This document shows positions 5,561-28,169 of a stretch of 32,000 nt of DNA, in pieces. Both the position numbers and the translations under genes were made by a program. Each line of letters opens with the position of its first letter. Positions within the stretch are counted from its first letter, which is position 1. The DNA comes from Candidatus Electrothrix yaqonensis. GTDB lineage: Bacteria; Desulfobacterota; Desulfobulbia; Desulfobulbales; Desulfobulbaceae. The notes beneath the pieces are model-generated. The model worked only from the letters and a program-made list of their open reading frames with translations. It did not search any database and was not told where the DNA came from. The stretch is taken from positions 240,001 through 272,000 of the forward strand of contig CP178758.1 of NCBI GenBank assembly GCA_047651235.1. Direction: 5' to 3'.

Positions 5561-6118
5561 ATGTCTGAGTCTGATATATCCGCACAGAATGCACACAATG
5601 CAAAAGGCGTCTTCCTGCTTTTTACCGGCAACGGCAAAGGAAAAACCACGGCAGCCCTCGGACTGACCCTGCGGATGATCGGGCATGGCGGCAGAGTCTG
5701 TTTTATTCAGTTTATCAAAGGAAGCTGGAAGTACGGTGAACTGGAAGCAGCCAGCCGGTTTCAGGATCTGCTGGACTTTCACGTCATGGGGCGCGGATTT
5801 ACCTGGAAATCGGATAATCCGGACAAGGATATTGCAGCAGCCCGTGAGGCATGGGAATTTGCCCAGGAGACAATTCAGAAAAATCAGCACCAATTGGTGG
5901 TGCTGGATGAACTGACCTATCCGATTACCTACGGGATAATCGATGAACAGGAAGTCATCAGGACAATCGTGGCCCGTGCCCCGGAGATGCATATTGCTGT
6001 TACCGGCAGAGGGGCCGGAGAACAGTTGGTGCAGGCGGCAGACCTGGTCACCGAGATGCAGGAGGTCAGGCATCCCTATACAAACGGGACACCGGCGCAG
6101 AAGGGGATTGAGTTCTGA
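5561..6118 (+). CDS. cobO: cob(I)yrinic acid a,c-diamide adenosyltransferase (CobO/BtuR type)
   Basis: 185 aa with the P-loop-like FTGNGKGKTTAALG, then VVLDELTY and a C-terminal HPY..G..AQKGIEF. Confidence 0.88.
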   Translation: MSESDISAQNAHNAKGVFLLFTGNGKGKTTAALGLTLRMIGHGGRVCFIQFIKGSWKYGELEAASRFQDLLDFHVMGRGFTWKSDNPDKDIAAAREAWEFAQETIQKNQHQLVVLDELTYPITYGIIDEQEVIRTIVARAPEMHIAVTGRGAGEQLVQAADLVTEMQEVRHPYTNGTPAQKGIEF

Positions 6119-10987: not shown

Positions 10988-11217
10988 TCAATCGCGCAGG
11001 CTGCATCCCGGATACAGTGAAACGACTGCGACCCGATCTGTTGACCAGTTATGGCCGCTCGAAATCCCTGTACAGCAGAAAGGAAAAAGCGTTTTGGGCG
11101 GTCGTAATGTATCCACAAGGCAGTCTCACCAACGCCAAGCTGCCAGCGGACCGCTTTCAGATCAAAATCGCAGCAGAGCATTCGGGCGACCTCGCACTCT
11201 GCTGCTGAAGAAAAAAA

Positions 11218-11584
11218 CGGGGCGGACTGTAAGCCGAATTTTGTTCCTGCCGAAGCAGGCCATGATCATTTGACTGGGATGCCGGTCACCCGGCACCTCG
11301 TGCAACCCACCCGGAAACCTTGGACGGGCAGTCCTCAGACGTTTCCCTATTTGGTCTTGCACCCGGCGGGGTTTACCCTGCCCTCCATGTCACCATGAAG
11401 GCGGTGAGCTCTTACCTCACCATTTCAACCTTGCCTGTGAACGGAGCGCCCGTTCCATCGGCGGTGTGTTTTCTGTGGCACTTTCCTCCGGTTACCCGAA
11501 GTTCCTGTTAGGAACCGCTGTGCCCTGTGGTGTTCGGACTTTCCTCTCCGGCATAAAGACCGGAGCGATCATGCGTCCGCCCCG
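11218..11584 (-). ncRNA. rnpB: RNase P RNA, bacterial type A
   Basis: The minus strand contains GAGGAAAGTCCGAAC, CACAGAAAACACACCGCCGATGG, GGTAAGAGCTCACC, GGTAAACCCCGCCGGGTGCAAGACCAAATAGGGA and ACAAAATTCGGCTTACAG. P1 pairs GGGGCGGAC with GTCCGCCCC, and P2 pairs CATGATC with GATCATG. A T-run follows the 3' end. The ends are approximate to within about 5 nt. Confidence 0.93.
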
Positions 11585-14725: not shown

Positions 14726-14751
14726 CTGCAGAACCTTTCAGGAAATTGACG

Positions 14752-16482
14752 ATGCATTCAATAAGGGAACAGTTACTTGGCAGTATTTCCTCTGGATTTT
14801 TTTTAGAGGTTGCTTGTCGTGTTTATCTGGAAAACCATGATAAAAAAGAATCAGTTGGTCAGGAAGTTGCTGATCTTCATAATGCAGGAAAGATTGATGC
14901 AATAGCAGAATTCAGGAAGCTCAAGAGTTCAGATCAACAGCATGATTTTTTCATGACCCGACATGTACTGGAGCATGCCCTGCCAAGCATAGAATCCCCG
15001 GTTGCCGCCGTGATGGACTGCGTCAAGCATCTTGTAGAAGAAGCGGGAAATAATATGGCCGCTGGCACACTGATTCCCCCGTTCATCGACTTCTGTGAGG
15101 CAGATGCAGGACGACCTGACGAAGTCCTCTCTGCCGCTTTAAATGAGGTTGATGATACCTTTGACTTCATAACTCCGGCAATTACTGCCGGTTCTAACCT
15201 CCAACTGGAGCAATATGCAAACAAGGCGGTCGAGCTGTGCTCTCACGAAAATATCCTGATCCGCTCCCGAGCTGTTCATGCACTTGGCCGTATAAAATAT
15301 CACGACCGTGAGGAGCTGATTAGTAAATCCTTGCAGGCTATCCAAACGACACTTGAGCAGGATTGCGATGAATACTTGTATGCAGCTATATTGAGATCTA
15401 CTGTTGCACTGTACAAAGCAGATAACAGCACTGAAAAACACGCTATCAAACTTCTACAACATATCCTTCCGCAACAGGATGATATCGTTCTATATGAAGC
15501 AGCTCAATGTCTCTTCTCAAAACTGCCTGCCAGCATGGTTGATCTCCTGCTTAACACCTTGGCTCAAATAAACATTCAACGTATCAATATAATAAGAGAT
15601 ATAGATTTCGGCCTTTGCTCTTTGATCAAGCATGGGATGCGTGAAAAAGTTCTCTTGTTCCTTGAGAAGTTACTTGTTCAGAGAGAGCAGGAATTTTCCA
15701 TTAGGCAATTTGATACACTGAACTTGGCAATTTGTAATAACAAAGAGGGGTATCTCGATTTTCTCATCACCCGCTGGCTGCTCTCCAAGCAAGTGGCCTT
15801 AGGTCGTGCGGCTGCTGATTTACTGGAGAATACGTCAGAGTATGGTACACCTGTTGCGGTTGACCTTGACCAATTGCAGGAATTGCCCGAAGGAATTCGT
15901 GTCTTTCTGGTAAGAAAAGCCTGCGGTTGGTTCTTTCATAAGCCTATAAGTGCGACCAGCTTCATTGTGTCCTTGATTGATACTGCCTCAGGCGATGAAA
16001 TCGAAGAGATAACCGACATCTTGTTTCATCCTCTTTTGATCAACTATTCCGGCTGCGTAAAGGATTATCTTGTCAAAACAGTTGAGGAAGAACCTTCCGA
16101 AAAGGTAAAGCTTGTTATCGATACTGTTCTCGAACAGCTTAAAAACTATCATGAAAGTTTAAATTCATCAATTAGCGAACTGCAACCAACACAAGCACAA
16201 AGAGAGGTTTTTCATCGGTATCAAAGCAGATTATTTGCTGAGTCGTACAAAGTAGCTCAGGAGAATTCAATATTTAATTTGATTACAACTAAGATGTGTA
16301 TATTGTACGGAACTCGTTCTGTTTATTATATTCATCATGGCCCCGGCGACCAAAAGAGCAGGCAGGAAATGGCATTAGCAGAACACAGCCATTATTTTGA
16401 ACTCCCATCTCTCGAACGTATCGATCCGCACGGACTTGATTACACCTTGTATGTTTTTCGCGTAGAAGGATGTGACTCATGA
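14752..16482 (+). CDS. hypothetical large alpha-helical protein with HEAT/PBS-lyase-like repeat(s); first gene of the AT-rich two-gene module
   Basis: The ORF track starts at TTG 14746. ATG 14752 is preceded by AGGA about 8 nt upstream. ENILIRSRAVHALGRIKYHD matches the HEAT_PBS-type repeat pattern. The rest is helical repeat-like, with a short beta-like C-terminal region. The stop overlaps the next start (ATGA at 16479-16482). Confidence 0.7.
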   Translation: MHSIREQLLGSISSGFFLEVACRVYLENHDKKESVGQEVADLHNAGKIDAIAEFRKLKSSDQQHDFFMTRHVLEHALPSIESPVAAVMDCVKHLVEEAGNNMAAGTLIPPFIDFCEADAGRPDEVLSAALNEVDDTFDFITPAITAGSNLQLEQYANKAVELCSHENILIRSRAVHALGRIKYHDREELISKSLQAIQTTLEQDCDEYLYAAILRSTVALYKADNSTEKHAIKLLQHILPQQDDIVLYEAAQCLFSKLPASMVDLLLNTLAQINIQRINIIRDIDFGLCSLIKHGMREKVLLFLEKLLVQREQEFSIRQFDTLNLAICNNKEGYLDFLITRWLLSKQVALGRAAADLLENTSEYGTPVAVDLDQLQELPEGIRVFLVRKACGWFFHKPISATSFIVSLIDTASGDEIEEITDILFHPLLINYSGCVKDYLVKTVEEEPSEKVKLVIDTVLEQLKNYHESLNSSISELQPTQAQREVFHRYQSRLFAESYKVAQENSIFNLITTKMCILYGTRSVYYIHHGPGDQKSRQEMALAEHSHYFELPSLERIDPHGLDYTLYVFRVEGCDS

Positions 16483-18320
16483 AGCTCATTATTCGGGAAT
16501 ATCTCGCCTCGTTACGGGAAAGAAAGGAGCTGGATGCCCTGCTTCCTGATCTGCTTTCCCAAATGGGCTTAGATGTCTTTTCAAAACCGGGCATAGGCAA
16601 TCGGCAATATGGCGTAGATGTCGCTGCCTTTGGCAGTATTGACGATCAACCAGAGAAAGTTTATCTGGTTTCAATTAAGTCAGGAGACTTGGGGAGAAAG
16701 GATTGGAACAGTGGCTCGATTCAGGATCTCCAGCCCTCACTGGATGAAATCCGTGATACCTATATCCCTACACACCTGCCTGCCGAATATAAAAACAAAC
16801 CTATAGAAATAGGAGTTACGCAGTTGGTTTTATAACCCGTTGGTTTTGTTCAACTGACGGTTTAAACCTCCAACAGGAGAACCTATTGTAACAATTGAGC
16901 TTCTTGTTTTCAACTGCGTAACTCCTAAGAAATTTGCATATGCTTTGGAGGCGAACTTAAGCGTCAAATTCATCAACGAGTTTCTTTATACGAAGAAAAA
17001 AACAGCACAGATCAGATCTCTTTCAGCAGATGGGATGGAGAAAAATTAGCAGGATATATTGAAAAATTTCTTCTGCGTGAAGAACTGCTGCCAAAAAATT
17101 GCCGTCGCCTGCTCAGGAAATCCCTGGCCATGCTTGACGAACCGGATGTTTCGCACAGGCATTTTTGCGAGCTGATCAAGCTGCTGGCAGATAATGAGGG
17201 CAAGAAACCGAAAGAAATTCTGACCGCAATGAGGCAGCTCAATTTATGCTTGTGGATTCTTTATACTTGGTGTCGAGAATCGGATAATCTCGAAAGCGCC
17301 TTCCTTTCCGGCGAACGGGCAGTGTTAACGGCTTGGTTCATGGGTAAACCATTCCTTGAAAAGAAAGGCAAAATTTCAACAGCCCTGTTTGAAACATCAG
17401 GCTCCATCTTACTCCTCTACACGCAGATAGCCCATTATTTTCTGGCAAACAAAATCCTTCCTCATACAGGAAAACTGTATGCGATTTCCAGAGCAACAGC
17501 TCCATCTTGTGCTCTGGATGTCAATCTGAAACTCTTTGATCTTCTCGGTAGACTGGCTTTATCTGGGCTTTGGTTATATTGGTGGTTAAATTACTTTCCC
17601 CAGGATAAGGATGATTCGCAGGAAAAGAGAAAAGAAATCCAGCAAGGAATTGCACAATATCAGATTGGTATAAAACAGCTTATAGCAAACAATCCGATCC
17701 TGTTTACTCCATATAAGGACGACCAAGCAATAGACATAGCACTTGCAGCCTTTTTTCTATCCATTGACCAAAGAAACCACGGTAACCTTTATGAGTGGTT
17801 GAACAATATGGTTCATATAATTCATTTCCTTTTTCAGACAAACAGTACCTATCCTTGTAATCTTCATAATTACTATGAACTCTTAGATCACCCGGTACGG
17901 GAAAGGGAAGACTATCAAAAGAATGTCACAAGTGCGAGCGTTCTGTATCCCACCATTGCGGTATTCGCCGCGTTGCTCGGATTTGAAGATATCTATTCAT
18001 CCGTGCAGAAGATCAAATCCGATTTTTTAGAGCATTGCGATTTTCAGTATTGGTACCCAGATGCCAGCTCAGAGGAACATTACTACACGAATGATGCACT
18101 TCATGGTGCTGCATTTCTTGGTGTATATATCGACAAAGATCACAAGAGTTTCTTGGATGACCTATTCAACGAGTGCGAGGAGTCAGCACATTTTCATGAA
18201 TTGAGTGCGATCAAGTATGGGCACTGGCCTCTCCTCCTCCTTGCCTCCAGGCATTACCGACTGCCAATTCCTCTGTATTTTTTGAAGAATCTGAGCGGTT
18301 CAAAAGAGCAGACTGAATGA
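16479..18320 (+). pseudogene. gene for a 572-aa protein (Mrr/PD-(D/E)xK-like N-terminal domain plus a large helical C-terminal domain), interrupted by a MITE
   Basis: ORF 16479..16835 terminates inside the MITE. The same frame is open again from 16929 to 18320 (the track shows only 17130..18320). Deleting 16810..16932 (123 nt) fuses ...EYKNKPIEI to CICFGGELKRQIHQRVSLYEE... in frame. The N-terminal motif is LLPDLLSQMGLDVFSKPGIGNRQYGVDVAAFG-x12-VYLVSIKSGDL. Confidence 0.75.
16810..16927. mobile_element. 118-bp MITE, copy 1 (17-bp perfect terminal inverted repeats, 5-bp TSD AGAAA)
   Basis: TAGGAGTTACGCAGTTG (16810-16826) pairs with CAACTGCGTAACTCCTA (16911-16927). AGAAA flanks both sides (16805-16809 and 16928-16932). 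It is about 90% identical (12 mismatches by hand alignment) to the reverse complement of copy 2. Confidence 0.9.
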
Positions 18321-18386: not shown

Positions 18387-18656
18387 TCATTGCTCAATAT
18401 TTCGGTGGCGCTTGGGATAGGAACGATAATGATGACGAGGTGGTGGAGGTACTGGCACTCTATATCTTCGATCTTTTCGATAACTCCGAGGATAGGAGTA
18501 ACGGTAAGAACGGGGTGCCAGCACAATAACTGCCGGAGCCGGGGCAGGGACGACAACTGCCGGGCTCGGCGCTGGCGACGCAGGAACGACAATGAGTTTT
18601 CTGCTTGTCTCACCAGCGGGATGGGGTATATATTTATTCCGATCTTCCTTTTTCAT
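18387..18656 (-). CDS. possible small Pro-rich / Arg-Tyr-rich low-complexity protein (very uncertain)
   Basis: The 89-aa ORF reads ...VVPASPAPSPAVVVPAPAPAVIVLAPRSYRYSYPRSYRKDRRYRVPVPPPPRHHYRSYPKRHR. It is the only sizeable ORF in a 365-nt gap. It has no clear RBS or signal peptide, and overlapping ORFs exist in other frames. Confidence 0.25.
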   Translation of the reverse strand: MKKEDRNKYIPHPAGETSRKLIVVPASPAPSPAVVVPAPAPAVIVLAPRSYRYSYPRSYRKDRRYRVPVPPPPRHHYRSYPKRHRNIEQ

Positions 18657-18684
18657 CCGCTCAGTTCACCAAAATATAAACGCA

Positions 18685-19266
18685 ATGCCGACCCGGCTTC
18701 TTCTCCTCCGTCACGGCCCGACCGCAGCACCAGCTGGATGTTTTGTCGGCAGCACGGATGTGCCCCTGTCCGGCAGCGGGTTGGCCCGGCTGGACAGTCT
18801 GATCCCGCAGCTCAGGCAAGCAGACTACTGGTACTGCAGCCCCATGCGCCGCACCCGGCAGACTCTGGAGCGGCTGCAGCAGAGCGGCTGCCCTGTGGGC
18901 AGTCCTGTCTATGATGAACGTCTGCGGGAAATTAACTTCGGCCGCTGGGAGATGAAAACCTTTGCCGAAATCAGCACAACAGATCAGGACCAGCTTGCGG
19001 CGTGGCAGCAGTACCTGGATTTTGTTTTTCCGGAAGGGGAAGCAGTACCTGCCTTTCTCAGCCGGGTCAACGACCTGCTTGCCGAATTCAGTGCAGCAGG
19101 CAGTACTGTCGCCATCGTGACCCACGGCGGGGTGATCCGTACCATGATTTGTCTGGCTCTGAGCATCTCTCCGCGCAACTATCTGCTCTTTGATGTGCAG
19201 CCAGCTTCTCTAACCATCCTTGATCTGTTTTCAGAAGGAGGCGTGCTGCGCGGCCTGAATCTCTGA
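18685..19266 (+). CDS. histidine phosphatase (PGAM) family protein, alpha-ribazole phosphatase CobC-like
   Basis: I take the start at the internal ATG 18685 of ORF 18592..19266. MPTRLLLLRHGPT carries the catalytic RHG, and CSPMRRTRQT and THGGVIR follow. Confidence 0.7.
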   Translation: MPTRLLLLRHGPTAAPAGCFVGSTDVPLSGSGLARLDSLIPQLRQADYWYCSPMRRTRQTLERLQQSGCPVGSPVYDERLREINFGRWEMKTFAEISTTDQDQLAAWQQYLDFVFPEGEAVPAFLSRVNDLLAEFSAAGSTVAIVTHGGVIRTMICLALSISPRNYLLFDVQPASLTILDLFSEGGVLRGLNL

Positions 19267-19333: not shown

Positions 19334-22300
19334 ATGAGTAATCCGCAATCCTCCGCATTCACCTCCAAGGCATGGGAGGCCAATAAACTGGAAACCGCCA
19401 GCAAGGTACAGATTCCCGAGCGGTTCAGGCTGCTGCAGGAGGTGGTGGTCCGCTATCAGGGACTGGCAGCCAAACTGGATCAGCTGCTGTACGAGATCAG
19501 TCATCCCTTCCGCAACTGGCAGTTGATCATCACGGAACTGCGGCCTTTTGTCCTGAAGAACTTTACCCATTACCGCAGACATGAACAAGGGCCAGCCTGT
19601 TTCGGCCTGTTCACCGGGATTTTTCTGGATGCGCTGCGGGATTCACGGAAAAACGGCAAGGTCATCGCCATGACGATGGAGGCCATGCTGGCCTATGCGG
19701 ACAAACTGATCTCTTCGTTGGATGCGGATGCCCTGCCCCTGTACCGGGATGAGCTGGACGCATTTTTCGACAGCCTGGCCGGGCTGGATGCAATTGATGA
19801 GACCGTGATGATGTATATGGTCCAGGGCCATCATCCCATGAAGAAAATGGCACAGCATCTGATAAAAATCGGTCGTGTTAACGAGGATGTCTTTTTCTCC
19901 TGTGCTTCGCTGGCCCGGCTGATGAACAAAATCCTCTTTCTCAACTATACCTACTGGCTGAGCGAGGAAAATCCGCAGCCCTGGTTTGAATCCCGCTGCG
20001 GTTCGTTCTGCAATGACTGCCAGGCAGGTCCGTTGCTGGAGGCCATTTCCCATGACCGGATCCGCGAACATCTTGCTGCGCTGGATCTCATTGATATTGA
20101 GGAGGATGCCTATCAGGCCCTCAGTGAGATCATGGAGCTTCCGGCTCACATCGATATTGTCCGCCTGTATCGGGAAATCCCGGCCAAGCTAACAACGGAC
20201 AGCAAGGATGAAGAGGAGGCATCTTTTGCGGAAAACCGTAAACTGTTCTTTCTTTTCCGAATCATGGAAACCTCCGGCTTGTATCTCATTCATGAGGAAA
20301 GCCTGCGGGAAATCAACCGCTCTCTGATTCAGCTCATTCGGAAGCAGAGCTTTGAGGAGATTGAGCAGTTTTTCGTCACCACCTTTCAGCTGCTCAAGGC
20401 CAATGTGCGGAAATATCCGCATACCTCGCTGCAGTGCATCCAGGTGATCGGCGGTGAGGTCTTCCGGCGGAGCAACTCCAAGTTGGTGGAGGCCTTTCTC
20501 TTCGAAGCGGTGCGCTTTGGGTTTCAGTACGCCAATGTCATGGGCGTGGACGAGGACTGGCAGCCCATCACCAACCCAGCCCATCTCGCCAATATCCGGG
20601 TCTGGCTGAACCTGATCATGCAGGAACCGAAATGGTGCTCCACCCTGTTTTCCGCCCTGATCATCAATATCCGGCTGTCCGGCACCTGTGTCAAGGATAC
20701 GGATCTGTTTCAGCGGGATATCACTGACCTGCTCAATCATCCGATCACGCCCATCTACAATCTGGCCAAGCAGTTCACCAAACTGATGCCGGTTTTTTTT
20801 AACGAGATCGGTGCGGAAGGCGAACTGCGGGATGTCTCCACCGAGCTGGATGAAATGCACAAACGGCATGACGTGCTCATCCACTTCCTGCGCAAGCAGT
20901 CCCATGTGGAATCCTCCAACCTGATTGTCGGCTTTATCCGGACGATTTTTATTTTCTGGATGACCCTGGACAAAGAACATCTCCGTCCCTTTCTGCCGCA
21001 GGAGATTCTCGGTCAGGTTGCCACGCAGGGCCTGTTTCTCGATGAACTGCACAGCCTGACAGGGCGTCTTCGGGACGAACTGGAATTTACGGCAATGGAT
21101 GATGTGCTGACTTGGGACGAAAAGGAGCGCACAGCCTGGCTTGCCCGGCAGGAGGATATTTCCGTAGGGGAACGGAAGCGCTTTGAGCTGCTGGTCAGAA
21201 TGTTTAAACTCCTGCACCATAAATACAACTTGGGGATGCAGGAACTGCGGCATCAGCTGCAGCAGGCTGCCCAGTCCGGCTTTCCGGAGATGGAAAATCT
21301 GCTGGAGATCCTAGAAAAAGGCGACACCTATACCTGTCTGGATGCCCTGCTGACCCATCTGGAGCAGCTGAAAGACATTATTCTGAGCAAAGAAACATTC
21401 GAACCCAAGGAAGAGATTTATTACAAACGCCATATTGCGGTGGATATCCCCTCGGTTTACGGCCGGTATTCCGAACGGAAGTTCGATGCCCTCGGTCTGA
21501 CCTTCCGCCTAGAGAATCTGGCGAATATCTACATCGAGCGGCTGACCCAGTCCATCAATCTGGGCTTTATCACCCAGGCCACCTTTATCCGGATTGCCCG
21601 CTGCCTGACCCTGTTTCTCCGGGCGCTCAAAGTGGACGGCATCAGCAGCCGCCGGCTGGATACCTACACCAGTCTGCTGAGTTCCTCCATCACCATGAAG
21701 CGGTTCACCTATACCCAGCATCTGGATATTGTCCGCGGCCTGTCCGAGGGGGTCAAGGACGTCATCTATGCCTATTACACCAATGTCCATCAGACCAATC
21801 TGTCCATTGTCATTCCGCAGATCGGTCAGGAAAATCTGCTGACCAAGTACCGTTCCCTCTGGGATGACGACGATATGCCCTCCACGGTGCATCGTCTTTC
21901 CGAGTCATTTTTCCGGGATCTTATCGCCACCACTTTCGGGCTCCAGCATCTGGACAACTTCATCACCCGGATTATCCATACCCTGGAAGCGCAGAAGGAT
22001 ATTCTGGATGAAAAGACCATTGATCTGCTGATGACCTATAATCCGGACAAGACAATTTCCTCGCTGTACAACGAGAATCTGCGTACCCACAACCTGATCC
22101 ATCTGGGCAACAAAGGCTTTAATCTGATGATGCTGGCCAATGACGGCAAGCCGGTGCCGCCCGCTTTTATCATTACCACGGAAATCTTCCGCTGCTGGCA
22201 GGCAGTGCAGAGCTTCAAGCGGGCCAGGGACGAATTTATGCAGCGGGTCCGGGCTGCCATCACCGGCCTTGAGGAACAAACTGGCCGCAGCTTCGGAGCG

Positions 22301-23587
22301 CCCAATACTCCGCTGCTCCTCTCGGTGCGCTCCGGCTCTGCCATCTCCATGCCCGGCATGATGACCACCATCCATAATGTGGGCCTGAATGAGGATCTGC
22401 TGCAGGATCTGGTGAGCAATCATCCAGAGCAGAAGTATTTTCTCTGGGACAACTACCGCCGTTTTCTCCAGTCCTGGGCCATGGCCGGGGGGATGGAACG
22501 CGAAGAATTCCAGGAACTGATGAATGCCCATAAACAACGCTACAAGATCCGTTTGAAACGGGAGTTCACCCCGGACCAGATGCGGGAGTTGGCCCTAGAA
22601 TACCAGAGCGCTTTGCGCAGACGCGGCTGCAGCGCCCCGGAAGATCCGTGGCTCCAGCTTGTCGGGGCCGTGGAAATGGTGCTGGAGTCCTGGAACACCA
22701 TGAAGGCCAAGCAGTACCGGCATCTCATGGATGTCTCCGACGACTGGGGCACTGCCGTGATTGTCCAGTCCATGGCCTACGGCAACCTGAGTGCGCAGGC
22801 GGGCAGCGGGGTGCTCTTTACCGCCCATCCCTACCGCAAGGTCCGCCGGGTGGCCCTGTGGGGCGACTATGCTGCTGGAGATCAGGGCGAAGATATTGTT
22901 TCCGGTCTGGTGAACAGCTATCCTGTTTCCGTGGAGCAGGCCGAGCTTGACGGCCGTCCTGTGGAGCGGACTTTGGAACGGAAATTTCCGGCCATTTACC
23001 AGGGCCTGCTCCAAATCGCCCGTGACCTGGTCTATACCAAGGAGTGGAATCCCCAGGAAATCGAGTTCACCTTTGAAGGGCCGGATCAGGAGGATCTGTA
23101 TATCCTCCAGACCCGTGACATGATTACCATTAAGAAAAAAGAGCATTTCCAGGTCTTTGAGGAGTCCGATATTCTGCAGGAAAATATCCTCGGCAAAGGC
23201 ATCGGCGTGAGCGGCTCGGCTCTGTCCGGTTTGGCTGTGTTTACGGATGAGAATATCCGGCAGCTCAGGCAGGAACAGCCGCATGTGCCGCTGATCCTGA
23301 TCCGGCAGGACACGGTCCCAGAAGACATCCGGGAAATCTCCATGACCGACGGCCTGCTCACCGCGCGCGGCGGCCAGACCTCTCATGCCTCAGTGGTGGC
23401 TACCCGGCTGGAAAAAACCTGTGTGGTGGGCTGCCGGGATCTGCAGGTCGTGGAAACCGGGGAATATGCCCGGATAAACGGGTTCAGAATCGGCTTCGGC
23501 GACCCGATCTCCATTGACGGCCGCAGCGGCCTGCTGCTGAAAGGGGTGCATAAGGTACGGGAGGAGGTGCATATTCTGCCGCTGTAG
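19334..23587 (+). CDS. 1417-aa protein: about 900-aa N-terminal region of unknown function fused to PPDK/PEP-synthase-type ATP-grasp and phosphohistidine swivel domains, with no PEP/pyruvate TIM-barrel domain
   Basis: PPDK-like motifs begin near nt 22090: LIHLGNKGFNLMMLANDGKPVPPAFIITTEIF, LLSVRSGSAISMPGMMTTIHNVGLN, GTAVIVQSMAYGN, GDYAAGDQGEDIVSG, and IEFTFE..LYILQTRDM. The swivel domain is GGQTSHASVVATRLEKTCVVGC (His codon 23384-23386). The stop comes about 65 aa later. Confidence 0.85.
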   Translation: MSNPQSSAFTSKAWEANKLETASKVQIPERFRLLQEVVVRYQGLAAKLDQLLYEISHPFRNWQLIITELRPFVLKNFTHYRRHEQGPACFGLFTGIFLDALRDSRKNGKVIAMTMEAMLAYADKLISSLDADALPLYRDELDAFFDSLAGLDAIDETVMMYMVQGHHPMKKMAQHLIKIGRVNEDVFFSCASLARLMNKILFLNYTYWLSEENPQPWFESRCGSFCNDCQAGPLLEAISHDRIREHLAALDLIDIEEDAYQALSEIMELPAHIDIVRLYREIPAKLTTDSKDEEEASFAENRKLFFLFRIMETSGLYLIHEESLREINRSLIQLIRKQSFEEIEQFFVTTFQLLKANVRKYPHTSLQCIQVIGGEVFRRSNSKLVEAFLFEAVRFGFQYANVMGVDEDWQPITNPAHLANIRVWLNLIMQEPKWCSTLFSALIINIRLSGTCVKDTDLFQRDITDLLNHPITPIYNLAKQFTKLMPVFFNEIGAEGELRDVSTELDEMHKRHDVLIHFLRKQSHVESSNLIVGFIRTIFIFWMTLDKEHLRPFLPQEILGQVATQGLFLDELHSLTGRLRDELEFTAMDDVLTWDEKERTAWLARQEDISVGERKRFELLVRMFKLLHHKYNLGMQELRHQLQQAAQSGFPEMENLLEILEKGDTYTCLDALLTHLEQLKDIILSKETFEPKEEIYYKRHIAVDIPSVYGRYSERKFDALGLTFRLENLANIYIERLTQSINLGFITQATFIRIARCLTLFLRALKVDGISSRRLDTYTSLLSSSITMKRFTYTQHLDIVRGLSEGVKDVIYAYYTNVHQTNLSIVIPQIGQENLLTKYRSLWDDDDMPSTVHRLSESFFRDLIATTFGLQHLDNFITRIIHTLEAQKDILDEKTIDLLMTYNPDKTISSLYNENLRTHNLIHLGNKGFNLMMLANDGKPVPPAFIITTEIFRCWQAVQSFKRARDEFMQRVRAAITGLEEQTGRSFGAPNTPLLLSVRSGSAISMPGMMTTIHNVGLNEDLLQDLVSNHPEQKYFLWDNYRRFLQSWAMAGGMEREEFQELMNAHKQRYKIRLKREFTPDQMRELALEYQSALRRRGCSAPEDPWLQLVGAVEMVLESWNTMKAKQYRHLMDVSDDWGTAVIVQSMAYGNLSAQAGSGVLFTAHPYRKVRRVALWGDYAAGDQGEDIVSGLVNSYPVSVEQAELDGRPVERTLERKFPAIYQGLLQIARDLVYTKEWNPQEIEFTFEGPDQEDLYILQTRDMITIKKKEHFQVFEESDILQENILGKGIGVSGSALSGLAVFTDENIRQLRQEQPHVPLILIRQDTVPEDIREISMTDGLLTARGGQTSHASVVATRLEKTCVVGCRDLQVVETGEYARINGFRIGFGDPISIDGRSGLLLKGVHKVREEVHILPL

Positions 23588-24551: not shown

Positions 24552-24773
24552 TCAGGTCCACCAGATTGAGCGCTTGGGCGGGTTGCCGTATTTCTCAAAT
24601 ACGTCCCCGGCTTCCTGCAGCACCTGATCCAGTTCCTCCACGGTAAAGGTATAGCCGTCCTCGGCAGCCAGGGTGACAAATTCCTCTTTATTGCCCGGAA
24701 CATCATATTTCGCCCGGACATGTTTATCCTCGCCGCCTGCTATCAACAATGCTTCCACGTCTTTCTTTGCCAT
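24552..24773 (-). CDS. Nif11-domain small protein (73 aa), a possible Nif11-type leader/core peptide
   Basis: I take the start at ATG 24773, preceded by AAGGAGG. MAKKDVEALL...NKEEFVTLAAEDGYTFTVEELDQVL matches the Nif11 N-terminal domain pattern. The tail is QEAGDVFEKYGNPPKRSIWWT. Confidence 0.65.
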   Translation of the reverse strand: MAKKDVEALLIAGGEDKHVRAKYDVPGNKEEFVTLAAEDGYTFTVEELDQVLQEAGDVFEKYGNPPKRSIWWT

Positions 24774-24832
24774 CAGGGCCTCCTTATGATCCGGTTGAAA
24801 AGACAACCGGTCAGTTATATGTTACTGCAATA

Positions 24833-25132
24833 TTACTGCATGAATTCAATATGTATCTGTTCGTCCTCTCCCTGGGACAGCGCATATTGACTGCCGTCGA
24901 GAAAGGTCATTTCCTTTTCCTGTGCTTCCAGCTTGAGGATATCAATCACCTCTTCGGTCCTGCTGCTGTCCGCCTCTGTGTTGGTATGTACCAGCACTCT
25001 GTCTCTTTCTCCGGTGAACTGCAGCAGCAGGGCATTATGATCGAGAAAGACCAAATCTTCATAGGCATAGGAAATGCCCATACCGGCCGCCTCCACAATT
25101 TCTTTCACAACACCGAGTTTCATTTCCGCCAT
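24833..25132 (-). CDS. hypothetical protein (99 aa)
   Basis: I take the start at ATG 25132 (MAEMKLGVVKEIVEAAGMG...), preceded by AAGGAAAG. The longer 150-aa ORF would overlap the upstream gene. I recognise no motif. Confidence 0.5.
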   Translation of the reverse strand: MAEMKLGVVKEIVEAAGMGISYAYEDLVFLDHNALLLQFTGERDRVLVHTNTEADSSRTEEVIDILKLEAQEKEMTFLDGSQYALSQGEDEQIHIEFMQ

Positions 25133-25175
25133 TTTTCTTTCCTTACGCTTCCTTCCGTCTCTATCTTCGGTCGTT

Positions 25176-25622
25176 TCAGTCCAGTAATTCTTCAACCACC
25201 AGCAGGCGAAGCTGTTCCGCCAAATCCAGCATCTCCGGAATCTCCTCCATGTCCGGCTGGCTGATTTTGAACCCGTCCAGATCACAGATTTCCTGATAAC
25301 TGTCCATCTTGAGCAGCCCTTGCCGGAGCTTCTCCATCCTGCCGGGAAAGGTGTTTTCCATCGCCTCGACCAGGTCCGCCATTGTATGGTTATAGGGCAT
25401 GGTTCCGTGCTGCATCAGCGCAGCCATGATAAATTTTTCAATGGCCATGGCAATAATATTGTAGAGGATTTCAGCAGTAAATACCGGACGCTGTTTCTGG
25501 TACGCTCCTTTTGCTGTGCGCAGATAGCCTTCGCCGTCTTTGAGAAACTCCTCCCAGCCCCTGATCGGTTCGATCGATTTCAGGGCAATCGGCTCTGCCG
25601 TCATCGTTGCTGTTGTCATCAT
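25176..25622 (-). CDS. hypothetical helical protein, weakly HEPN-like
   Basis: 148 aa. The start overlaps the GNAT stop (ATGA) and is preceded by GGAGG. AMAIEKFIMAALMQHGTMPYNHTMADLVEAM resembles the HEPN helix pattern, but no Rx4-6H motif is visible. Confidence 0.4.
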   Translation of the reverse strand: MMTTATMTAEPIALKSIEPIRGWEEFLKDGEGYLRTAKGAYQKQRPVFTAEILYNIIAMAIEKFIMAALMQHGTMPYNHTMADLVEAMENTFPGRMEKLRQGLLKMDSYQEICDLDGFKISQPDMEEIPEMLDLAEQLRLLVVEELLD

Positions 25623-26068
25623 TTTCCTCCATCAACCCTGCGTAAGCAGATCAGCTCGGTCACCCGGTAGCCGAGCCTGTTATAGAAAGCAAGGGCGCTG
25701 CTGTTGTTGCGGTCAGCAAGCAGCTGAACCCGAGTTGCGCCTTGTTCTGTTGCCCAGTCGGCAATTGCCTTCATGAGCTGCCTGCCTATCCCCTGTCCCC
25801 GCCATTCCGGCAGAAGCACCACATCCTCCACCAGCGCAGACAGGCCGCCTTCAGCCGTGGAAATCAGAAGCTGCCCGGTACACATCCCGACAACCTGTCC
25901 TTCCTGTTCGGCAACCAAGACCGCAGTCCGGCTGTTGTCCAGCAGCAGCTGCAGGCCCTGTTCCTGCCTGGCTGCATCGGCGGCAAAGTCCTCTTCAATA
26001 CTGAACAGGACATCTAGCAGGTTGACCAGGGCAGGCAGGTCAGCGGCAGCGGCCCGACGAATCTTCAT
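25619..26068 (-). CDS. GNAT-family N-acetyltransferase
   Basis: 149 aa. Acetyl-CoA motif A is LLPEWRGQGIGRQLM, and a C-terminal NSSALAFYNRLGY follows. Confidence 0.85.
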   Translation of the reverse strand: MKIRRAAAADLPALVNLLDVLFSIEEDFAADAARQEQGLQLLLDNSRTAVLVAEQEGQVVGMCTGQLLISTAEGGLSALVEDVVLLPEWRGQGIGRQLMKAIADWATEQGATRVQLLADRNNSSALAFYNRLGYRVTELICLRRVDGGK

Positions 26069-26073
26069 CGCCC

Positions 26074-26379
26074 TCAGCCTGAAATCAGGTAATCTGCCGA
26101 CGGCTCGCCATCTTCAAGCCCGTCCAGAATGGTGTCAATGGCCTCTTCGCTGTTCACGCCGCCGAACCACCAGTTCTCCGGCTGAATCACCATGACCGGC
26201 CCTTTTTCACATTGCTTGAGGCAGGTGGTGGCGGTGACCAAGCAGTCCAGCCCGCGATCCAGCACTTCTTCCTCGATGTACTGCAGAAATCCGTCGCTCT
26301 GCTTATGACAGATGCCCTTTTTATCCCCTGCGACACGAAAACTCTGGCAGAGCAGAATCTGCCTCTCCGGTATTGCCAT
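26074..26379 (-). CDS. thioredoxin-like [2Fe-2S] ferredoxin
   Basis: 101 aa with Cys at ILLCQSF, KGICH and TTCLKQCEKGPVMVIQPENWWFGGV. This pattern is typical of small (2Fe-2S) ferredoxins found in nif-type clusters. Confidence 0.7.
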   Translation of the reverse strand: MAIPERQILLCQSFRVAGDKKGICHKQSDGFLQYIEEEVLDRGLDCLVTATTCLKQCEKGPVMVIQPENWWFGGVNSEEAIDTILDGLEDGEPSADYLISG

Positions 26380-26427
26380 TGTCTATTCTCCTTTTTCCTT
26401 TATGAATTATCAAACAATTATAAATCG

Positions 26428-27576
26428 TTATTTCTTACATTTCTTTTTCTTGCCGCCGCCGTAGAGTACATCCACCGTGCCCTCAATATTTTCCTCGGTC
26501 AGCAGCACTTTAATGCCCTGTTCGGCCAGAACCTTTTGCGGATTTTCTCCGGCATTGGCGGCCAGCAGGGCAAAACAGTCGGACAGGCATTCGTCCGCCA
26601 GTGCCTGCCAGCGGGAGGTCCCTGAGCCTGCTGCCGGGGTGTTGCGGGATTCCAGAAGACAGGCCAGGCCGTCCTGCCTGGGGCCGTAGATCAGCATCTT
26701 GCCTGCCTGACCGAGGTGCAGGTCCACATCCATGCCGTTGGAACTGGCCACAGCCACGTTGGGCCGTTCCTTGCTCGGCTTGGGCAGCAGGGCTGCGGAA
26801 TTTTTGAAATCACCGCCTGAAGGCGGGGTCAGATACCGTTCCCCGTACTCAAGAACCTTCAGGTGAGGAGCAGCTGCTTCGGCTGCCGCAGCCAGCATCC
26901 CGGTATCGCAGGCAGACAGGTTCTCTTCTTCGGAAACCGGCCGGAAAGGGATCAGGGTCATAGTGATCGCACCCAGACCGGCTGCCTTCTCTGCAACAGC
27001 ATTGATATGCGCCTCATTCAGGCCGGGATATACCGTGGTCAGGATGTTCACCTCCAGCCCTGCAGCACAGAACGCCCGGATGGCCTCCTCCTGTTCACCA
27101 ACCAGGAGCTCCGTGGCTGCAGGCAGAGGAACCGTCTTTTTTCCCGGTCGGATCCAGGCATAAACCTTTTGGGCCACATCTGCGGTGACCGCCTCTACCT
27201 GTAGGTCAATCCGGACAACACCTTTCTCCGCCAAAGCATCGGCAAGCTGCGCCGCCCCAAGCCCGATGGTGGTTACCTTGACCGGCAGGTCAGGATATCT
27301 TTCCTGCAGTAGAGTCAGAACAGCCAGCAGGATATCAGGGGCGGCCAGGGCATCACCGGGGCCGCAGATATTCAGGCCATGAATTTCCTTGCCTCCTTTG
27401 ATCAGTTCTCCGATCCAAGCAACAGCCTCATCCGGCAGCATGGCCGGAGCGACCTTGTCCGGTTCGCCGAACCGTTTTCTGCTGTTGACCTGCGGAGCTG
27501 CCAGCAGGATCAGGCTGTCAATGCACATGGATTGTTCACAGGGTTTCTTGCTGTTCTCGCAGTGCGGGATAGTCAT
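26428..27576 (-). CDS. NifB-like domain (radical-SAM fold lacking the CxxxCxxC triad) fused to a NifX/NifB-C-terminal (FeMo-cofactor-binding family) domain
   Basis: I take the start at ATG 27576 (MTIPHCENSKKPCEQSMC...). The listed 467-aa ORF has an implausible N-terminal extension. ICGPGDALAAPD, VTTIGLG, IDLQVEAVTADVAQKVYAWI, VNILTTVYPGLNEAHI and MTLIPF are colinear with NifB. The C-terminus VAVASSNGMDVDLHLGQAGKMLIY...FALLAANAGENPQKVLAEQGIKV is a NifX-type domain. Confidence 0.7.
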   Translation of the reverse strand: MTIPHCENSKKPCEQSMCIDSLILLAAPQVNSRKRFGEPDKVAPAMLPDEAVAWIGELIKGGKEIHGLNICGPGDALAAPDILLAVLTLLQERYPDLPVKVTTIGLGAAQLADALAEKGVVRIDLQVEAVTADVAQKVYAWIRPGKKTVPLPAATELLVGEQEEAIRAFCAAGLEVNILTTVYPGLNEAHINAVAEKAAGLGAITMTLIPFRPVSEEENLSACDTGMLAAAAEAAAPHLKVLEYGERYLTPPSGGDFKNSAALLPKPSKERPNVAVASSNGMDVDLHLGQAGKMLIYGPRQDGLACLLESRNTPAAGSGTSRWQALADECLSDCFALLAANAGENPQKVLAEQGIKVLLTEENIEGTVDVLYGGGKKKKCKK

Positions 27577-28169
27577 TGTCTGCTCTTTGTACGCTTTGGT
27601 AAGGATATTTGCTTCTCCGCAGATCAGATACGGAACTGTACTGTTATTTCCTATAAAGCAAACAACGCGCCAAAGAGGATATTGATTTGATATAATCAAT
27701 AATAGCAGCTCTATAAGATGGAAGGGCCGTATGCAGTTCGCAAGTATGCGCTGTTCCGGACGTAACAGTATTGTTAGCAATGTAACGAGAAGGCGGGGTG
27801 TTGCCAAATTTGTCAAACAACAACTTTTCATTGCACCATCATTGCATTATGAAGGATGTGCTGCTATCTGCTGTACATTCTCCTGTTTCCCCTTGCAATA
27901 TCAGCAGGAGAATGGTATTGATTAATAATCGTTGCACTTTAACCTTTTATGAATTCATCAGAAGTGAAGCCATGCTGAAGAACTGTCGTTATAACTGAAG
28001 CTGACGCAACAGCATCCGGCCCCGGGCGGGTCGGCAGAACATGTCAGCGGTTCTTCTCCTCCCCTGATTGCCTTCCGGATTTTTCTTCTCTTCCTCTCCG
28101 GTATATTCAGACGGACAAAGGACCGTCTGATTTTGTTGCCATGCGTACATTCTTTAACGGAGAGAGAAC

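Follow-up and report, generated by a model that had tools for sequence, protein, structure and literature searches.

In pyruvate phosphate dikinase (PPDK, EC 2.7.9.1; Clostridium symbiosum structures 1kbl and 1dik) an ATP-grasp domain is followed by a swivelling phosphohistidine domain and then by a C-terminal TIM barrel for phosphoenolpyruvate (PEP) and pyruvate. PigC and the plant glucan, water dikinase (GWD) combine the same ATP-grasp and histidine modules with other acceptor domains; GWD and PWD are dikinases of about 1400 aa with PPDK_N-type nucleotide and phosphohistidine domains and a long non-catalytic N-terminus, and in GWD the histidine domain comes before the nucleotide domain and the N-terminus carries CBM45 or CBM20. 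Rifampicin phosphotransferase (RPH) likewise pairs the two modules with a different acceptor domain (PMC4844700), and VadK (Rv1127c; PRK05878, about 490-534 aa, Actinobacteria), which derives from PPDK and has no TIM barrel, is known to autophosphorylate on the swivel histidine (bioRxiv 10.1101/2025.10.30.685616). Here we describe a much larger derivative, a 1417-aa protein (hereafter the giant protein) encoded in a 32,000-nucleotide stretch of the Candidatus Electrothrix yaqonensis genome (assembly GCA_047651235.1, contig CP178758.1, positions 240,001 to 272,000, forward strand; hereafter the window), which lacks the barrel, carries an extra helical module of about 915 aa at its N-terminus and belongs to a family whose genes are coupled to that of glyceraldehyde-3-phosphate dehydrogenase (GAPDH). 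In the searchable literature we found neither the family nor its N-terminal domain described, nor any mention of the coupling to GAPDH.

The PPDK-like part of the giant protein is its C-terminal third, to which both Pfam matches are confined (PPDK_N, E 1.9e-27; PEP-utilizers mobile domain, E 9.6e-16). When PDB sequences were searched with phmmer, residues 919-1409 aligned with residues 16-513 of C. symbiosum PPDK (E 1e-72), residues 919-1283 corresponding to the ATP-grasp part (PPDK 16 to about 390), and the alignment stopped short of the TIM barrel, for which Pfam (PEP-utilizers_C) gave no match in the giant protein. The C-terminal half superimposes on PPDK 1kbl over 542 columns with a root mean square deviation (rmsd) of 3.2 Å (Foldseek E 6e-32); PPDKs come first in the Foldseek list, followed by PEP synthase, RPH and HpeI, and the swivel domain matches the PPDK phosphoryl-carrier domain 2fm4 by both phmmer and Foldseek. 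Within the motif GGQTSHA (residues 1346-1352), His1351 aligns with PPDK His455, and in a 43-sequence alignment of the family (30-62% identity) K927, R999, R1042/R1043, E1244, Q1259, T1343, G1346/G1347 and H1351 are invariant and R1261 is nearly so. An original prediction, made by a model from the letters of the window, had recognised PPDK/PEP-synthase ATP-grasp motifs and GGQTSHA in the C-terminal third, and Pfam, NCBIfam, phmmer and Foldseek all agree. The two domains are ordered as in PPDK, with catalytic residues and TSH motif conserved, and the protein has a PPDK-type ATP and phosphohistidine apparatus that is intact in its catalytic residues.

After His1351 only 66 residues remain before the stop, close to the 65 or so counted in that prediction, which had also considered that a frameshifted TIM barrel might lie further on. 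No TIM-barrel-like sequence was seen downstream of the gene, whose 3' end is adjoined by a convergent open reading frame (ORF) on the minus strand. At its other end the gene starts with an ATG preceded at 8 nt by a Shine-Dalgarno-like GAGG, and a scan for promoters and terminators around it yielded nothing informative. The cable bacterium Candidatus Electrothrix sp. YB6 has a protein that matches the giant protein at 100% identity, and more than 120 full-length orthologues (1412-1444 aa, 68-86% identity) have the same end point, with the C-terminus ...EEVHILPL. Because these orthologues share both length and C-terminus, the missing PEP/pyruvate domain is native, neither a frameshift nor a truncation artefact, and a broken PPDK gene is ruled out.

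Databases list members of the family as "pyruvate phosphate dikinase" or "PEP synthase", or else as "PEP/pyruvate-binding domain-containing protein", a label that goes back to an older name of PF01326, the nucleotide-binding domain. Despite these names the giant protein is, by its sequence, not a PPDK, since it has no TIM barrel, carries the extra module and reaches only 345.5 bits against the PPDK model TIGR01828 (cutoff 843; match 923-1262), although this is its best NCBIfam model. Nor does it resemble PEP synthase (PpsA) more closely (67-74 bits with TIGR01418/PRK06464 against cutoffs of 598-740; no TIM barrel). VadK is like the giant protein in ending some 66-68 residues past the catalytic histidine, again with no TIM barrel, and the residues required for VadK-type autophosphorylation are conserved throughout the giant family. 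VadK, however, has no N-terminal module, occurs in other taxa and has methylcitrate-cycle enzymes as partners where the giant protein has GAPDH, and the PRK05878 model gives the giant protein 281 bits against a cutoff of 456.

The logic of an ATP-grasp domain, a swivel histidine and a separate acceptor domain is shared with RPH, PigC/RedH/HapC, HpeHI and phenylphosphate synthase. In RPH the histidine domain is C-terminal (PMC4844700), as in the giant protein, but the relationship of its ATP-grasp domain is remote (16% identity, E about 1e-5), and its acceptor domain is unrelated and lies between the ATP-grasp and histidine domains instead of at the N-terminus; NF041857 scores 33 bits against a cutoff of 999, the Foldseek matches cover the ATP-grasp and histidine parts only, and the PigC/RedH models give 23-36 bits against equivalog cutoffs of at least 1300. 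The giant protein belongs to none of RPH, PigC and GWD. An RPH- or phenol-dikinase-type phosphotransferase of xenobiotics or antibiotics would have the same domain logic (acceptor domain, ATP-grasp, terminal swivel histidine), and RPH and HpeI do follow the PPDKs in the Foldseek list. We nevertheless regard such a function as extremely improbable, given scores of 15-37 bits with the RPH, PigC and RedH models against cutoffs of about 1000 or more, a housekeeping level of conservation (68-86% identity across a whole bacterial family) and linkage, described below, to a gene of central metabolism and not to catabolic or resistance genes. Swivel-histidine dikinases in the broad sense have a separate acceptor domain in the same polypeptide; the candidate for it in the giant protein is the conserved, always fused N-terminal module with its invariant polar motifs.

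Residues 1-915 gave no Pfam match at E<=1 and none in NCBIfam or among PDB sequences (phmmer); 12 diverse family members likewise gave no significant Pfam match at E<=5, and a profile of 12 diverse cores retrieved nothing significant from the PDB (hmmsearch). Two AlphaFold2 (AF2) models were analysed, the first of residues 1-915 (input, 20 close sequences; pLDDT 70 overall and about 85-90 over residues 30-290) and the second of residues 291-1417 (input, 50 diverse sequences; pLDDT 88.3, pTM 0.75). The first consists of helices throughout, and the N-terminal region, which contains 10 Cys and 29 His, is predicted to be nearly all alpha-helical. Fold searches with both models against the PDB (Foldseek) found, beyond the PPDK-like half, only generic alpha-solenoids of the karyopherin type (E >=1.7e-3, TM 0.1-0.2). 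The main beta element within the helical module is a predicted hairpin in model 2 that holds the motif KRH...IPS, its strands being model residues 402-410 and 415-423 (protein residues 692-713).

At an overall identity of 30%, about 25 residues of this module are invariant family-wide, most of them charged or polar. Those in the core include H417, D455, E495, R499, D506, D513, R520, K521, H524, K630, Y631 and K698, and further R699, H700, S707, R861 and D874, and the invariant positions are grouped in the motifs DTDLFQRD, FNEIGAEGELRDVST, HFLRKQSHVES and IYxKRHIAxxIPSxYG; motif scans with DTDLFQRD as the pattern retrieved relatives only. Because so many residues are invariant and mostly charged, the module looks like an active or binding site. 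The original prediction had described some 900 uncharacterised, helical residues with several Cys and His and had suggested that they may be a novel substrate-binding or regulatory module, allowing that a well-known domain might instead explain them. No such domain emerged from the sequence and fold searches, the helical character and the Cys and His residues are as described, and the strong conservation and the invariant polar motif set fit a substrate-binding or catalytic module.

An exhaustive phmmer search of 1.84 billion representatives with residues 1-915 as the query returned 580 clusters (50% identity), of which 202 had E<=1e-30, with identities as low as about 28%. Since nearly all complete members are 1350-1450 aa long, the N-terminal module is always fused to a PPDK-like half. 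A scan for the N-terminal motifs placed relatives in at least 590 GTDB species genomes, the best 80 being all from Desulfobulbia, and distant members occur in Magnetococcus marinus MC-1, a Desulfobacterium metagenome-assembled genome (MAG), Clostridia, Geobacteraceae, Bacteroidales and candidate divisions. Cultured carriers include Garciella nitratireducens, Sinanaerobacter chloroacetimidivorans, a Petroclostridium isolate, Desulfosediminicola flagellatus and M. marinus MC-1. A few members have an extra hemerythrin HHE domain of about 140 aa at the N-terminus (P0166 and P0167, both from metagenomes; E 3e-12 and 4e-8), which suggests that in some lineages the sensing of O2, redox state or iron is coupled to the enzyme.

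Gene context was compared in 84 Desulfobulbia loci, whose neighbours were grouped by unbiased clustering, and in 84 loci of a distant clade; 58 and 46 of these loci, respectively, were fully flanked, and a GAPDH gene within 600 bp was counted as adjacent. Clustering of the Desulfobulbia loci showed a canonical type I GAPDH gene directly upstream on the same strand, the median distance between the two genes being about 150 bp. Of the fully flanked loci 33/58 have it there within 600 bp, and GAPDH is found somewhere at the locus in 41/58. Loci devoid of GAPDH are mainly those of Desulfobulbus, Desulfolithobacter, Desulfogranum, Electronema and Electrothrix, the closest relatives of the window; cable bacteria and their close relatives have lost the adjacency. 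The distant clade has an adjacent GAPDH gene in 35/46 fully flanked loci. Three arrangements occur: a long GAPDH variant downstream on the same strand (34 loci), a canonical GAPDH upstream and divergent (20 loci), or a canonical GAPDH on the same strand (7 loci). The gap is at most 20 bp in 10 of all its same-strand pairs. Among members that share about 30% identity with the giant protein of the window, a GAPDH-family gene follows after 6 and 13 bp in one locus of Geobacteraceae and one of another lineage, and one lies downstream in the Clostridia locus described below. A Bacteroidales locus lacks an adjacent GAPDH, and no broadly conserved neighbour besides GAPDH was found among the Desulfobulbia and distant-clade loci. 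Linkage of the giant gene to GAPDH therefore spans phyla and does not depend on the order of the genes.

The long GAPDH variant has about 413-417 aa (401-440 aa) and forms a tight subfamily, whose 120 best matches share at least 72% identity, scoring 302-313 bits with the GAPDH-I equivalog (cutoff 367) and falling under the curated cutoff of every matching GAPDH-related NCBIfam model. It retains the catalytic Cys and His, the TGAA loop and the VRxPT Arg; since these are kept, it should handle an acyl-phosphate/aldehyde pair of the glyceraldehyde 3-phosphate (G3P)/1,3-bisphosphoglycerate (1,3-BPG) type. It also has about six insertions and lacks the NAD-specific Asp of the INDL motif, a loss that hints at an anabolic enzyme of NADP type. 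As a reciprocal test, long-variant genes were chosen by homologue search without reference to the giant protein, and in 4/4 loci, carried among others by G. nitratireducens, S. chloroacetimidivorans and the Petroclostridium isolate, the gene directly upstream (gaps 31-366 bp) encodes a giant protein of 1355-1362 aa with PPDK_N and PEP-utilizers domains, while the remaining neighbours all differ. The long GAPDH appears to be dedicated to the giant protein.

Kinases and phosphorylating dehydrogenases that act as pairs (PGK/GAPDH, AK/ASD, ArgB/ArgC, ProB/ProA) are often co-encoded, for example in gap-pgk operons, and the transfer of a phosphoryl group from phosphohistidine to an acyl phosphate is known from succinyl-CoA synthetase and ATP-citrate lyase. 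The giant gene takes the place beside gap that the gene of phosphoglycerate kinase (PGK) often holds, and one Clostridia locus, in the order glycerate kinase, GntP permease, giant gene, GAPDH, suggests that the giant protein occupies the position of PGK; its first two genes suggest a route from glycerate to triose phosphate. The reading that we favour, tentatively and as something short of an even bet, is that the giant protein is a PPDK-derived swivel-histidine dikinase that has lost the barrel, has gained its acceptor module at the N-terminus and pairs with GAPDH, most likely at the PGK-like step between 3-phosphoglycerate and 1,3-BPG. By analogy with RPH, PigC and GWD we infer an acceptor site in an N-terminal pocket. 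The acceptor would belong to the GAPDH step, with 3-phosphoglycerate as the simplest candidate, and its identity, like the direction of the reaction, is proposed from context.

Under this scheme the ATP-grasp domain would phosphorylate His1351 from ATP, as in PPDK, and the C-terminal histidine domain would swing to a polar pocket in the N-terminal core, built by the motifs DTDLFQRD, EGELR, HFLRKQSH and KRH..IPS, where it would hand the phosphoryl group to the bound acceptor. The reaction would be 3-phosphoglycerate + ATP (+Pi or H2O) <-> 1,3-bisphosphoglycerate + AMP (+PPi or Pi). Such a bypass of PGK, driven by the conversion of ATP to AMP, would feed GAPDH, possibly within a complex, and would relieve the thermodynamic bottleneck of PGK and GAPDH in gluconeogenesis (free-energy values in PMC12525153). 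If this reading is right, the giant protein and PGK would share a metabolite pair; the two have no relation in sequence or fold, and PGK transfers directly from ATP to give ADP whereas the giant protein would go from ATP to AMP through a phosphohistidine. The specific proposal of a 3-phosphoglycerate dikinase that acts via phospho-His1351 (ATP to AMP), uses a new type of catalytic domain and forms, with its partner GAPDH, a unidirectional anabolic PGK/GAPDH bypass in many anaerobes is possible, if rather doubtful.

Several observations weigh against a role at the PGK step. The substrate is assigned from gene neighbourhood only, and GAPDH adjacency is absent in Desulfobulbaceae sensu stricto, including cable bacteria, and in several Bacteroidales-like loci. 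PGK itself is present in 98.9% of genomes (PMC12525153) and is presumably still there alongside the giant protein, which would then be a bypass and not a replacement. About 900 helical, alpha-solenoid-like residues far exceed what binding a triose needs and are typical of protein-protein scaffolds, the hemerythrin sensor domain of some members is more typical of regulatory proteins, and in the AF2 model the histidine domain rests against the ATP-grasp domain in the manner of PPDK 1kbl.

Some of these points are better suited to the main rival, a regulatory, protein-directed dikinase comparable to VadK, which would be autophosphorylated on His1351 and whose scaffold would bind GAPDH or another protein and phosphorylate or sequester it to control flux, instead of producing a metabolite. 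VadK, which also lacks the barrel and autophosphorylates on the equivalent histidine, co-purifies with methylcitrate-cycle enzymes (bioRxiv 10.1101/2025.10.30.685616). The modelled resemblance to an alpha-solenoid, the hemerythrin fusions, the roughly six insertions of the long GAPDH, which could be docking surfaces, and the tight two-gene cassette that this GAPDH forms with the giant gene would all be in keeping with such a role. Yet the invariant polar pocket is the same whether the partner is the long GAPDH or a canonical, insertion-free one, its wealth of invariant Arg, Lys, His, Asp and Glu residues is more suggestive of a site for a small molecule or Mg-phosphate, and a phospho-acceptor protein has not been demonstrated even for VadK; we therefore judge the regulatory role unlikely, if less so than the alternatives that follow.

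Two of these keep the enzyme in the same part of metabolism. In the first, glycerate, glyceraldehyde, dihydroxyacetone or some other metabolite at the triose/glycerate level, or a GAPDH-related cofactor, would be the acceptor in place of 3-phosphoglycerate, and the dikinase would feed or drain the GAPDH step. It would account equally for the GAPDH linkage and would fit both the glycerate kinase and GntP permease that adjoin the cassette in the Clostridia locus and an aldehyde dehydrogenase 3 bp upstream in another; these neighbours are, however, confined to single loci, and the partner GAPDHs keep residues of the canonical G3P/1,3-BPG site, which leaves this option quite unlikely. In the second, the N-terminal module would replace the TIM barrel in an unconventional PEP-forming enzyme (pyruvate + ATP -> PEP) that would belong to a gluconeogenic set with GAPDH and a GlgA-like synthase. 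The ATP-grasp/histidine half is indeed nearest to true PPDK (TIGR01828 345 bits versus 73.6 for the PEP synthase model NF005057 and 33 for RPH; 28-31% identity and the rmsd of 3.2 Å on 1kbl), the Desulfobulbia arrangement of glgA-like gene, gap and giant gene is consistent with a gluconeogenic flow to glycogen, and the missing INDL Asp of the long GAPDH hints at an anabolic NADP-type enzyme. Against it, the PEP-utilizers_C barrel is absent from the family, it would be unparsimonious for an unrelated domain of 900 aa to take over from the pyruvate site in one and the same reaction, and the gene specifically linked, whatever the order, is GAPDH and none of the PEP node such as enolase or Pgm, so that we consider a PEP-forming role distinctly improbable.

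The GlgA-like GT5 synthase just mentioned, of about 539 aa (TIGR02095 255 bits, cutoff 328), is encoded by a divergent gene some 1.3 kb upstream of the giant gene, with gap in between, in 42/84 Desulfobulbia loci (L009, L022-L084). It would be a natural neighbour for a glycogen-directed analogue of GWD that phosphorylates alpha-glucan, and plant GWD is of similar size and likewise has PPDK_N-type nucleotide and phosphohistidine domains. This linkage is nonetheless restricted to Desulfobulbia and absent from the distant clade, Pfam detected no carbohydrate-binding module in the giant protein or in the 12 diverse members, and the domain order is PPDK-like and not GWD-like, which makes a glucan dikinase very unlikely. 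The coordinates of the features discussed here and of those noted around them are collected in Table 1.

Table 1. Features of the giant gene, its product and its surroundings (positions are those of the window, except where an L number gives those of a related locus)
Feature	Residues	Position	Strand	Basis or remark
Giant PPDK-derived protein gene, complete, 1417 codons + stop	1-1417	19334..23587	+	ORF list, orthologues
N-terminal helical region, less conserved; near-invariant A13, N17, E54, H57	1-299	19334..20230	+	AF2 model 1, alignment
Conserved helical core, candidate acceptor/active-site module	300-915	20231..22078	+	alignment, AF2 model 2
Motif DTDLFQRD, invariant or near-invariant	455-462	20696..20719	+	alignment, scan pattern
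Motif FNEIGAEGELRDVST; E495, G496, R499 invariant	489-503	20798..20842	+	alignment
Motif HFLRKQSHVES; R520, K521, H524 invariant	517-527	20882..20914	+	alignment, scan pattern
Motif IYYKRHIAVDIPSVYGRYSERKF, predicted beta-hairpin; K698, R699, H700, I705, P706, S707, G710 invariant	695-717	21416..21484	+	alignment, AF2 model 2
PPDK-type ATP-grasp nucleotide-binding domain	~916-1283	22079..23182	+	Pfam PPDK_N, TIGR01828, Foldseek 1kbl
Swivel phosphohistidine (PEP-utilizers mobile) domain	~1284-1417	23183..23584	+	PF00391 at 1321-1384, 2fm4
Catalytic His codon CAT in GGQTSHA	1351	23384..23386	+	aligned to PPDK His455, invariant
Long GAPDH genes		L085:11564-12814, L087:11146-12417, L088:11114-12316, L169-L172:7001-8254
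Glycerate kinase + GntP-family permease, directly upstream of giant gene/long-GAPDH cassette		L085:4317-6859		one Clostridia contig
HMA P-type ATPase		L001:12511-15480, L002:12339-15284, L004:13195-16140
CobA/CobO corrinoid adenosyltransferase		5561-6118	+
RNase P RNA, class A		11214-11584	-	308 bits, full length
Two ORFs (578 aa and 396 aa)		14746-18320	+
His_Phos_1 phosphatase		18592-19266	+	Pfam
Convergent ORF, 236 aa		23383-24093	-
Nif11, 148-aa ORF, GNAT, radical-SAM genes		24552-27831	-

The neighbours in the window gave no partner. The conserved partner, GAPDH, could not be seen in the original prediction, because cable bacteria have lost the adjacency. The phosphatase gene upstream of the giant gene, put forward in the original prediction as a candidate conserved neighbour, recurs only in one other Electrothrix MAG, as local synteny, and a functional partnership was rejected, as it is absent beside the Desulfolithobacter, Desulfogranum and Desulfobulbus orthologues. 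Its best match is CobC, alpha-ribazole phosphatase (133 bits, cutoff 163), and because the Pfam match begins at residue 36 its true start is probably an internal Met near 18685. A corrinoid adenosyltransferase gene lies 13 kb upstream of it, and the phosphatase is more likely an enzyme of the cobalamin pathway than a partner of the giant protein. Transketolase, the HEAT-like and 396-aa ORFs, the zinc-ribbon ORF, Nif11, GNAT and radical SAM genes were also rejected as partners, since they recur near 0/172 related loci. An HMA P-type ATPase of about 981-989 aa is encoded directly downstream of the giant gene in 11 Desulfobulbaceae loci (Desulfolithobacter, Desulfogranum, Desulfobulbus) and is absent from the window; this adjacency is probably lineage synteny.

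The convergent ORF begins with a Lys/Glu-rich stretch, followed by a zinc ribbon and a hydrophobic segment, and its Ser/Thr/Pro/Arg-rich C-terminal tail overlaps the last 205 or so nt of the giant gene, including the region of the His1351 codon; since this tail looks non-protein-like, the gene may end or begin so as to be shorter than annotated, unless the two genes truly overlap. The RNase P RNA occupies an ORF-poor stretch between the HSP20 and transketolase genes, and the window has no tRNA genes. The 578-aa ORF (with a weak hint of HEAT repeats) and the 396-aa ORF belong to no Pfam or NCBIfam family, recur near no orthologue and lie at a GC content of 0.41-0.45 against about 0.52-0.55 around them; this stretch could be an acquired island. 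On the other side of the giant gene lie genes for an 84-aa Nif11-domain protein and a GNAT acetyltransferase, a 148-aa ORF, and a radical-SAM gene whose 467-aa product has a Nitro_FeMo-Co (NifX/NifB-like) domain at its C-terminus; together they could form a NifB-like or Nif11-associated (RiPP-like) set.

Taken as a whole the giant protein is probably an undescribed enzyme of central metabolism. Where metabolic reconstructions of cable bacteria and other Desulfobulbia, of Clostridia or of digester MAGs treat its gene as a PEP-forming step, they are probably wrong, and the labels "PPDK" and "PEP synthase" should not serve to infer a step from pyruvate to PEP in cable bacteria and many other anaerobes. 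Its N-terminal module of about 900 aa is a large new domain family with no relative in Pfam or the PDB, present in at least 590 species genomes. The order-independent coupling of the giant gene to GAPDH across phyla is new and, with the dedicated paralogue, points to undescribed biochemistry, or undescribed regulation, where trunk glycolysis and gluconeogenesis pass through the GAPDH/PGK step, one that to our knowledge has so far been considered invariant in bacteria. If the giant protein does act on 3-phosphoglycerate, it would be the gluconeogenic counterpart of the catabolic GAPN and GAPOR bypasses, its partner in Clostridia would be a dedicated long GAPDH paralogue, probably of NADP type, and with PPi the dikinase could run backwards and make ATP from AMP. 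The cultured hosts of the family permit this role at the GAPDH step to be tested experimentally.

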